A stretch of DNA of 64,000 nt, taken from the IMG/VR virus record IMGVR_UViG_2939521961_000011, one strand, 5' to 3'. This document shows positions 8,929-54,195 of this stretch, in pieces. The notes beneath the pieces are model-generated. The model ran no database searches and was not told the DNA's origin. It worked only from the letters and a program-made list of their open reading frames with translations. The translations under genes and the position numbers were made by a program. Every line of letters starts with the position of its first letter. Positions within the stretch are counted from its first letter, which is position 1. This stretch comes from a virus (taxonomy: Duplodnaviria; Heunggongvirae; Uroviricota; Caudoviricetes).

Positions 8929-9012
8929 TCAACCCCAGCGGCAAATCGAATAAACCACCAGCGCTACCGCCATTGCAACTCCTGCCGTTACGAATGCCTC
9001 AGGCCAGGTCAT
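8929..9012 (-). CDS. 27-aa hydrophobic peptide, conserved in both prophages
   Basis: ATG overlaps the upstream stop (ATGA); GAGGA RBS; copy at 54112-54195 differs by 5 synonymous and 3 conservative changes. Confidence 0.55.
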   Translation of the reverse strand: MTWPEAFVTAGVAMAVALVVYSICRWG

Positions 9013-9194
9013 CGTAAACTATCCTCAGCGCCAATCAGTCCGTTTCGCTTCAGGCAGTCCATCGCTTTATACGGTAATTTGGCTGACAGGCGAAAATCAC
9101 CCTGCAGCATCAGGCTTATTCCCTTATCCCGGGCTTTCGCTCTGACCGCTGCCTCGCTACGACCAATCAGACTGCCGATACTTTCGACAGTCAT
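9009..9194 (-). CDS. small HTH-like protein
   Basis: Start at ATG 9194; conserved N-terminus with copy at 55625-55879. Confidence 0.4.
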   Translation of the reverse strand: MTVESIGSLIGRSEAAVRAKARDKGISLMLQGDFRLSAKLPYKAMDCLKRNGLIGAEDSLR

Positions 9195-9253
9195 CGTTCC
9201 CGCGCACTGCCGGAGTATCAGAATTTCAGCCCGGCACCACGTCTTCCACCCAC

Positions 9254-10015
9254 TCACCGCTGCTGTTCTCTGGTGGCGGTAATATCCCGGAGAATATCCC
9301 GGCACTTGTTCAGCTCCCGCAGCGCGGCGCAGACTCGCTCCCACTTCTGAACCTGACCTTTTGCCCGGCGCAGCTCGCGGTTAGCCACATGCAGCGATGG
9401 TAAAATCAGCCCATCCGGATGCTTTCTGGTGAACGACGGCTGTGACTGCACTGTGACCGCCACACTTTCCGTTTTTATTTCTTCCTGTGTTTCCGCTTCC
9501 CGGACTGGTAACGCAACACATGCTGGCTGAGGAAAGGCTTTACCATCGGTTTCCGCTACGGATGCAGCTTCCGGCTCTGCCGGTAAATCAGCGCCCGGTA
9601 TGCAGTAACGAAATTTACCGTTCTGATTTACGCGTGCCAGGCGCCCCGTTGCTGTTACGACCGCCAACGTGGAAGCAACCTTGCGAATGCTAACACCGAA
9701 CTTATCCGCCAGTTCCTCACACGTTTTAGCCCCATCCTGACAGATAAACTCAATCATCATGTCCGCGGTAACTTTTTGTTCGACCTCCCCGGTCAGCACA
9801 TCCGGTACTTCAGACTGTGCTGGCTGTTCTTCGGTTACCCCGGATTCACCTTCACCAGCCAGAAACCAGGTGTGACCCGTTTTATCAACAACGCCATTTT
9901 TTTTGAGTTCCCACAGTTCGTTGAGAACTTCTTCACGGCTGATATCAAGCCGCGCCGCCAGTTCAACAGAATTGGCTTTACCCATCGTTTTCAGTGCATG
10001 CAATACGGTTTCCAT
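9254..10015 (-). CDS. DUF1627-like phage protein (winged-helix N-terminus)
   Basis: 253 aa; homologous copy at 55939-56700; typical of lambdoid replication/nin regions. Confidence 0.55.
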
Positions 10016-53745: not shown

Positions 53746-53901
53746 TTACTTCTCAGATTCGTAGTCTACGAAGACAGCGACCTCCGTCTGACCGGTTCGG
53801 ATTCGCACCTCGCAGAGGTCTTTCCTCGTTACCAGTGCCGTCACTATGACGGTTAAACAGATGACGATCAGGGCGATTAACATCGCCTTTTGCTGCTTCA
53901 T
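53746..53901 (-). CDS. hok: Hok/Gef-family type I toxin, second copy (mok-like frame to 53958)
   Basis: 51 aa, same architecture as 7679-7834 with a divergent C-terminal tail. Confidence 0.8.
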   Translation of the reverse strand: MKQQKAMLIALIVICLTVIVTALVTRKDLCEVRIRTGQTEVAVFVDYESEK

Positions 53902-54111
53902 AGCCTGCTTCTCCTTGCCTTTCGGCACGTAAGAGGCTAACCTACATGTGTTCAGCATGGATTGAGCCTCAGATTAATGTTAAGCGTCTTGCAGGACGCG
54001 TAATGTTAACTGGGGCTTTTCTCTATCTGCCGTTGGTGTTCATGCCCGAGGCAGATAGCCTCAAGCACCCGCTGCAATTCTACTTAACTATCCTTTTCCC
54101 GCAAACCGTTT

Positions 54112-54195
54112 TTATCCCCAGCGGCAAATCGAATACACCACCAGCGCCACCGCCATCGCAATTCCTACCGTTGTGAATGCTTCAGGCCAGGTCAT
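54112..54195 (-). CDS. 27-aa hydrophobic peptide, second copy
   Basis: AGGAGG RBS; ATGA overlap with upstream stop. Confidence 0.55.
   Translation of the reverse strand: MTWPEAFTTVGIAMAVALVVYSICRWG

Follow-up and report, generated by a model that had tools for sequence, protein, structure and literature searches.

Does an open reading frame (ORF) of only 27 codons in lambdoid prophages encode a genuine protein, and if so what might that protein do? This question is raised by a stretch of 64,000 nucleotides from the IMG/VR virus record IMGVR_UViG_2939521961_000011, a member of the Caudoviricetes (the whole stretch is called the window below), which carries two copies of a hydrophobic micro-ORF, one in each of two prophages, at 8929-9012 (copy 1) and 54112-54195 (copy 2). 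An earlier note on this DNA had proposed that the micro-ORF is a real, unannotated, single-pass membrane micro-protein that is coupled to the upstream gene and under purifying selection, and this core reading, a prediction from sequence, is supported by every test that we ran. Comparison of the homologs shows a predicted coding frame with purifying selection on its amino acids, one hydrophobic helix, a mobile cassette and an ATG that overlaps the upstream stop codon. We consider it almost certain that the micro-ORF is a real coding gene.

Coding capacity and purifying selection

The coordinates given in the earlier note are correct, and the strand that it left unstated is the minus strand for both copies; translation of that strand yields the peptide while plus-strand translations are unrelated. 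Copy 1 (8929-9012, minus) has 27 codons from an ATG at 9010-9012 to a TGA stop at 8929-8931 and encodes MTWPEAFVTAGVAMAVALVVYSICRWG. Copy 2 (54112-54195, minus) has 27 codons from an ATG at 54193-54195 to a TAA stop and encodes MTWPEAFTTVGIAMAVALVVYSICRWG, which is the commonest variant of the family. As had been stated, five codons differ synonymously between the two copies and three residues are replaced, namely V8T (2 nt), A10V and V12I. The Nei-Gojobori method gives Sd=5.0 and Nd=4.0, with a ratio of nonsynonymous to synonymous substitution rates (dN/dS) of 0.24, and the selection signal from the two window copies alone is marginal (Fisher p=0.043).

Purifying selection is borne out by a wider set of homologs. 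Approximately 230 loci were gathered from species-representative genomes and IMG/VR and were then searched, without regard to frame, with an nhmmer DNA profile, giving 226 usable homologs. All 226 have ATGA at the start and 222 are intact at exactly 27 codons, the others being three stop-loss extensions and one copy with a 1-nt deletion; intact copies end with TAA (201) or TGA (21). At the DNA level the set contains 66 unique sequences, yet these encode only 27 different peptides. Among the 66 DNA sequences, Fitch parsimony places 31, 34 and 114 changes at codon positions 1, 2 and 3, respectively (p=7.4e-17), and none has an in-frame stop. The ratio of nonsynonymous to synonymous changes (N/S) is 0.59 in frame versus 5.1-6.2 in the four out-of-phase control frames. 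Pairwise dN/dS values are 0.09-0.61 and fall below 1 in all informative pairs, with dS reaching 1.5 between deep branches.

Given these numbers it is barely credible that this strand holds no gene. The block would then have to be a conserved linker for DNA recombination, an element acting as RNA, an ORF on the antisense strand, or an extension that programmed frameshifting adds to the C-terminus of the upstream protein. The block does lie exactly at mosaic junctions, and antisense coding sequences (CDSs) are annotated in two phage records. The antisense frame whose wobble positions align with those of the sense frame also has an N/S of only 0.71, which is the expected shadow of the sense frame because the wobble positions are shared. 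In contrast, the threefold excess of changes at third positions is the signature of protein coding and not that of a DNA or RNA element. An antisense ORF was rejected, as stops are present in 5 of the 66 sequences in the wobble-aligned frame, and in 5-50 of them across antisense frames overall, and neither start nor stop is conserved. A conserved RNA structure was likewise rejected, with folding z-scores of +0.05 to +0.93 indicating no excess structure on either strand. A programmed frameshift fusion to the upstream protein was rejected as well, as a canonical slippery heptamer occurs in one of 80 junction contexts, an in-frame stop lies 1-2 codons upstream in some contexts including that of copy 1, and the upstream genes are diverse. 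The lack of structure excess, the near absence of slippery heptamers and the nearby in-frame stops together exclude the RNA-element and frameshift-fusion readings. The two antisense annotations are "hypothetical proteins" over the micro-ORF in phage Stx2 II (locus L226, ORF C38, locus positions 201-950, minus) and in phage POCJ13 (locus L228, gp73, locus positions 706-834, minus), and both are probably shadow ORFs of the sense gene.

Likely coupling to the upstream gene and exchange between phages

The proposed coupling of the micro-ORF to its upstream gene is supported across the family. The upstream stop overlaps the micro-ORF start at 215 of the 226 loci (95%), through an ATGA junction at 162 loci and a T(G/A)ATG junction at 53; the two junction types, the latter seen as TGATGA, keep one frame relation and differ in that the upstream stop of the second lies one codon earlier. 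A GGAGG sequence is found 5-10 nt before the ATG in 69 of 80 distinct contexts. Both window copies show the ATGA start that overlaps an upstream TGA stop, as well as the Shine-Dalgarno sequence that had been described for them. For copy 1 this is GAGGA (9022-9026, minus), which lies within the 3' end of the upstream ORF 9 nt before the ATG, and for copy 2 it is GGAGG (54203-54207, minus), which is formed by codons of the C-terminus (...PQEV) of the upstream DUF551 gene and lies 7 nt before the ATG. A stop-start overlap with a Shine-Dalgarno sequence inside the upstream CDS is the arrangement of translationally coupled overlapping cistrons, and from this anatomy coupled or re-initiated translation of the micro-ORF is very likely.

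In DUF551 genes, the stretch ...CCGCAGGAGGTG... at the 3' end, which codes for PQEV, holds the GGAGG not only in the window (54196-54215) but also in HK022 (L234), epsilon34 (L236) and Klebsiella phage Kp4865-1 (L237), and in these loci the start of the following gene overlaps the DUF551 stop or sits within a few bases of it. Since the next start overlaps or adjoins the stop and the GGAGG lies inside the gene, the C-terminus of the domain is, on this arrangement, a putative generic coupling signal for varied downstream genes.

The upstream genes of the two window copies are unlike each other. Copy 2 follows a gene (54192-54749, minus) for a 185-aa DUF551-domain protein of the Ea22/EaA type (Pfam DUF551, 72.5 bits; PHROGs 60, 924 and 660), the TGA stop of which (54192-54194) overlaps the micro-ORF ATG. 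Copy 1 follows an ORF of 111 aa with a GTG start (9009-9344, minus), with its TGA stop at 9009-9011 overlapping the ATG. This ORF is a chimera. The N-terminal part is similar to a DNA-binding protein of 134 aa, of which the second prophage has an intact gene (55625-56029, minus). The final ~23 codons are similar to the C-terminal end of the 114-aa C0 family, which precedes the micro-ORF in ArgO145-type phages, and the copy 1 locus is homologous to phage ArgO145 from 68 nt before the ATG onwards. The Prokaryotic Genome Annotation Pipeline (PGAP) treats the 5' part of this ORF as a C-terminally incomplete pseudogene. From this structure, approximately 1.4 kb appears to have been lost upstream of copy 1 by deletion or recombination, with the junction kept in frame and the micro-ORF still coupled.

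Variation of the neighbours extends throughout the family. There are at least six classes of upstream genes, which comprise the 114-aa family (PHROG 660), DUF551 proteins, a 933W L0139-type protein, a 209-aa family, a Vequintavirinae EaA-type protein, and a RusA-like gene that is uncoupled and has no overlap with the micro-ORF. The 114-aa family, the DUF551 proteins and the Vequintavirinae EaA-type protein share common modular PHROGs of the Ea22/EaA set. There are also at least four kinds of downstream neighbours. A hok-like ORF lies within 1.5 kb at 109 of the 226 loci (within 500 nt at 92), where mok usually starts ~153 nt after the micro-ORF stop; a DUF4222-type gene begins 4 nt beyond the stop; a RelE/ParE pair lies on the opposite strand in the ArgO145 type; and window copy 1 is followed by an isrK/C4-RNA/ORF6N-antirepressor module. 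Upstream and downstream classes occur in mixed combinations, and homology between differing contexts often runs from exactly +1 to about +80/85. For example, copy 2 and phage ArgO145 agree at every position of an 85-nt stretch (100% identity), and the flanks to either side of it are unrelated. As homology is bounded by the ATG and the stop between otherwise unrelated contexts, the ORF with its Shine-Dalgarno sequence is an independent mosaic module, and these alignments show a self-contained cassette of a Shine-Dalgarno sequence and 27 codons that has recombined between phages at its own boundaries. A unit this small can thus be shuffled on its own, as a mosaic module, when phages evolve.

The same contexts bear on whether the peptide serves the upstream Ea22/EaA/DUF551-type protein as its membrane anchor or as a small subunit, with coupling enforcing stoichiometry. 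Such a role would fit the 95% retention of the stop-start overlap and the fact that most upstream partners (classes C0, C1 and C6) fall in one modular set with PHROGs 60, 660 and 924. Additionally, two independent in-frame fusions of an upstream protein to the peptide, which arose by frameshift or deletion (locus L015; loci L180 and L230), indicate that a tethered form is tolerated, although these fusions look like decay events. We regard an anchor as improbable, however, since the micro-ORF also follows unrelated proteins (the 933W L0139-type, the 209-aa family and the non-overlapping RusA-like gene) and, in window copy 1, a chimeric remnant, and since the homology block usually ends at the ATG so that the peptide moves between phages separately from the protein proposed as its partner. 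Steady co-occurrence with DUF551 or Ea22-type proteins was not found. DUF551 occurs in 582 phage records versus ~94 with the micro-ORF, and six distant DUF551 genes lack the micro-ORF and are followed by genes for soluble proteins instead; an obligate DUF551 companion was therefore rejected. A named homolog in Escherichia coli K-12 was rejected as well, as no micro-ORF copy was found after yfdS, the DUF551 gene of prophage CPS-53. Short hydrophobic ORFs were also seen once each just behind the stop of a distant DUF551/EaE gene or overlapping it, an 18-aa ORF (MDYFLLCVGVVIWVAYLS) in Klebsiella phage Geezett (L238, locus positions 706-762) and a 31-aa ORF with a TTG start in P22 (L235, locus positions 689-784); each is a single instance that could be due to chance.

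The downstream contexts likewise bear on a reading in which the peptide is irrelevant and translation serves a cis effect only, by keeping ribosomes at the end of the mRNA, by preventing Rho polarity, or by setting how strongly the next gene or the neighbouring hok or isrK promoter is expressed. Both window copies are the last cistron before independently promoted modules, the DUF4222-linked class has its next gene 4 nt past the stop, and the copy 1 stop codon is part of a -35 hexamer. However, the conservation of amino acids (the dN/dS range given above, with ten positions invariant or nearly so) is unexpected for an ORF with a cis role only, 222 of the 226 homologs share the one length of 27 codons, and the downstream contexts are heterogeneous. 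We thus give very little weight to this reading.

The predicted membrane peptide and its possible mode of action

The earlier note expected a single-pass transmembrane peptide, and one helix is predicted by both hydropathy and AlphaFold2. Residues 6-24 are hydrophobic, with a Kyte-Doolittle mean over 19 residues of 2.1-2.2, and such a helix would be long enough to cross the bilayer. AlphaFold2, given an alignment in which a natural variant of 30 aa was the first sequence, predicts a single helix over residues 3-26 (mean predicted local distance difference test score of 87.6). One transmembrane helix is, on these models, highly probable. The charged residues E5 on the N-terminal side and R25 on the C-terminal side lead the positive-inside rule to predict an N-out/C-in topology, which is probably the orientation adopted. 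Six residues (W3, G11, A15, S22, R25 and W26) are the same in all of 32 variants and four more (P4, A6, A17 and Y21) in nearly all, a pattern that appears to point to specific rather than generic hydrophobicity.

Its size and hydrophobicity also resemble those of TisB, DinQ, ShoB and Ibs-class peptides, which raises the prospect of a small membrane toxin (type I-like, holin-like or depolarising) that damages or permeabilises the host inner membrane in lytic growth. An early phage gene can afford toxicity, and the micro-ORF often sits beside toxin-antitoxin modules (hok/sok downstream at the 109 loci noted above, and RelE/ParE in the ArgO145 type). Like the type I toxins Hok, TisB, DinQ, ShoB, Ibs and Ldr, it is a tiny hydrophobic transmembrane peptide that frequently adjoins hok/sok. 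Unlike them it has no antisense RNA, promoter of its own or structured leader, and it has no sequence similarity to Hok. Instead of a type I organisation there is coupling to the upstream cistron with a strong, exposed Shine-Dalgarno sequence, and no excess mRNA structure that would occlude translation (z=+0.5 to +0.7). No promoter-like site is present on the plus (antisense) strand across the ORF and no Rfam antitoxin RNA overlaps it, with sok and isrK/C4 found only downstream. A conserved region of antisense pairing would furthermore sit poorly with the free drift at third positions, the adjacent toxin-antitoxin modules are separate units with their own signals that are absent in about half of the contexts, and the conserved polar and aromatic residues at both ends of the peptide suggest specific contacts. 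A toxin is thus less favoured and, in our judgment, unlikely.

The explanation that we favour, with moderate confidence and by analogy, is that the micro-ORF encodes an early-expressed small inner-membrane protein that would act through helix-helix contact with a membrane target. That it is a partner-binding modulator, rather than a toxin or an anchor, is a more tentative suggestion that is also drawn from analogy. From the anatomy of the locus, ribosomes ending the upstream gene would re-initiate at the micro-ORF ATG and the strong Shine-Dalgarno sequence would also let ribosomes load directly, so that synthesis of the peptide would go along with any transcription of the early or accessory operon around it. 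This would lead to production during lytic growth or induction and not in the repressed lysogen. The peptide would then insert in the inner membrane with its acidic N-terminus (MxWPEAF) outside and its basic C-terminus (YSxCRWG) inside. In the least certain step, which is argued by analogy, the helix may pack on a host inner-membrane protein and shift its activity or stability. The invariant G11xxxA15, Y21-S22 and the interfacial W3, W26 and R25 may be the relevant features of the helix for this step, and candidate outcomes, equally uncertain, are early superinfection exclusion or a tuning of the lysis-lysogeny or host take-over programme.

There are known proteins with which such a role can be compared. 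Small single-pass inner-membrane regulators of enterobacteria include KdpF (29 aa), AcrZ (49 aa), MgrB (47 aa), MgtS (31 aa) and PmrR (29 aa). The micro-protein is like these in having fewer than 50 residues, one transmembrane helix, short conserved termini, a history of being missed by annotation and presumed helix packing, but it has no sequence relationship to them and is phage-borne, mosaic and coupled to unrelated genes rather than placed in the operon of its target. T4 Imm and HK97 gp15 are early phage membrane proteins of ~80 aa or more, with different topologies, that block secondary infection, and HK97 gp15 is expressed from the prophage. The likeness is that the predicted micro-protein and these two are small phage inner-membrane proteins from an accessory region, with a homolog of the micro-ORF existing in a virulent Vequintavirinae phage; in contrast, the micro-protein is far smaller and unrelated in sequence, and its operons are expected to be repressed in lysogens. 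Finally, the micro-ORF shares the neighbourhood of the exo-xis/ea genes (orf60a, orf61, orf63, orf73, ea22 and ea8.5), where it lies after Ea22-V2/EaA/DUF551-type genes and before xis/int or hok. It differs from those genes in being absent from described gene lists, in being the sole membrane peptide there, and in also occurring after replication genes, as in this window.

Several points weigh against the reading of an early, partner-binding membrane micro-protein. Retrieval of the loci used peptide patterns, which biases the set toward intact copies. Broken alleles exist, namely a 1-nt deletion in loci L009 and L229 and a truncation in locus L232. The earlier note had named homologs with frameshifts or stops as grounds for abandoning its proposal; such copies do occur but are rare, and they are consistent with what would be expected from prophage decay. 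A separate search at the DNA level, made on complete E. coli genomes, agrees with high intactness, as only 3 of 60 rows sampled evenly down the ranking were aberrant (two with the 1-nt-deletion allele and one 5'-truncated remnant). A ribosome profiling (Ribo-seq) screen of enterohaemorrhagic E. coli (EHEC) O157:H7 Sakai excluded ORFs of less than 30 aa. No homology to any characterised small protein was found in the databases searched (see below), and one conserved helical face was rejected since the variants display no single-face periodicity (permutation p=0.77). Additionally, expression with the early operon is suggested by gene order, and the mode of action is proposed by analogy only.

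A more specific version of the favoured explanation, in which the product of this mobile micro-gene is a transmembrane effector that acts specifically on a machine in the host inner membrane, for example a DNA-entry route or the proteolytic FtsH/HflKC system, which determines CII/CIII levels, is speculative and we hold it to be rather doubtful. Were it true, the gene would contribute to superinfection exclusion by Shiga toxin (Stx) phages or to their lysis-lysogeny and induction behaviour, phenotypes that have so far been credited to annotated exo-xis genes. A defined host membrane target, if found, would make the peptide a phage-encoded addition to the class of small-membrane-protein regulators. 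There is also a practical consequence, as constructs and deletions in the exo-xis or hok-proximal region may have unknowingly carried or removed the micro-gene, which could confound phenotypes credited to its neighbours.

Annotation, distribution and surroundings of the window copies

The micro-ORF is indeed unannotated in all records inspected. No RefSeq feature lies under the match in the genomes listed and O26:H11 11368 has no CDS for it. In eight phage records (933W, ArgO145, Vequintavirinae, YYZ-2008, PhiR12_4, Stx2 II, VT1-Sakai and POCJ13) the match starts exactly at the end of the annotated upstream CDS and no CDS is given for the micro-ORF. Gene callers have missed it because its 84 nt are below their length cut-off, and it is a clean example of a micro-protein that escapes purely for this reason. 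In a collection of 5.8 billion protein clusters, which was queried with both window peptides joined into one 54-aa sequence purely for searching, the peptide occurs in only 53 tiny clusters, all of 29-87 aa, and the native 27-aa form is never among them. These clusters instead hold forms lengthened by loss of the stop, forms extended or fused at the N-terminus, and forms with in-frame insertions in the transmembrane segment. The expansions of the segment (P0038, P0043, P0045, P0029, P0040 and P0001, all in proteins of other E. coli genomes) comprise hexanucleotide repeats that give (AM)n, insertions of 2 residues and a duplication of 15 residues; they add 2-15 residues to the helix and become visible only once the ORF exceeds the length limit of gene callers.

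Family databases returned only sub-threshold matches to hydrophobic stretches. The best NCBIfam match, KdpF (TIGR02115), reached 14.0 and 14.7 bits over 11-12 hydrophobic residues, against a cut-off of 26.85; the best Pfam match reached ~14 bits against 27; and the best PHROGs match was phrog_4612 (E=0.019). There was no match in PADLOC and none in PDB at E values up to 10. The peptide sequence does not occur in the supplements of the Sakai Ribo-seq paper or of the Enterobacteriaceae microproteome survey, a full-text literature search for it returned no papers, and neither the exo-xis literature nor a review of phage small proteins describes such a gene. As far as can be checked this is an undescribed family of phage micro-proteins, one that belongs to the small single-pass membrane proteins, and it may sit as an unnamed cluster in the 2022 phage small-gene catalogue or in GMSC.

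The family is widespread in phages of pathogenic E. coli. A tblastn search found the peptide in 94 phage records, which include those of 933W, VT1-Sakai, VT2-Sakai and one Vequintavirinae phage. Its carriers are Sepvirinae Stx phages, Pankowvirus, small siphophages, the virulent Vequintavirinae phage and plasmids, and it is located in the exo-xis/ea region or in the region after replication genes. The 180 plasmids with the micro-ORF are ~90-130 kb in size and mostly non-mobilizable, with Escherichia (154), Salmonella (25) and Klebsiella (1) as hosts. Of 5426 complete E. coli genomes, 1634 (~30%) carry DNA homologs, at 3110 places and with up to 7 copies per genome. The gene is often multicopy, and it is also present in the reference Stx phages named above. 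Beyond Escherichia and Shigella the scan of species representatives gave only tiny contigs, a Segatella copri metagenome-assembled genome (L009, 1780 bp), Xanthomonas pisi (L010, 431 bp) and Acinetobacter idrijaensis (L013, 369 bp), and these matches most likely reflect contamination rather than host range.

The window itself matches E. coli O26-type lambdoid prophages at 100%, and copy 1 is 100% identical to O26 genomes. Directly after copy 1 there is a promoter-like site, TTGACG-18-TATATT (8903-8932, minus; 10/12 matches), that probably drives the downstream isrK RNA. Its TTGACG -35 hexamer is formed by the last codon of copy 1 and the TGA stop, and copies with a TAA stop lack the hexamer; the site marks a module boundary that is outside the micro-gene proper. 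The isrK RNA (8822-8896, minus; Rfam, 51 bits) is followed by a C4 antisense RNA (8712-8796, minus; Rfam, 69 bits) and an ORF6N antirepressor (8106-8657, minus), and this interval between copy 1 and hok (8106-8932, minus) resembles a P1-immI/Gifsy-1-like module.

Each prophage also carries a hok/mok/sok locus. The first is located at 7679-8003 (minus; Rfam sok, 117 bits) and the second at 53746-54070 (minus; Rfam sok, 113.5 bits at 53896-54070), the latter starting 42 nt after the copy 2 stop. The hok/sok element is a separate neighbouring module that is found downstream in about half of the family members. The first hok locus is adjoined by genes for a RelE/ParE-family toxin (123 aa) and a helix-turn-helix antitoxin (105 aa) at 6895-7576 (plus), and three modules of the toxin-antitoxin type are clustered within 2 kb of copy 1.

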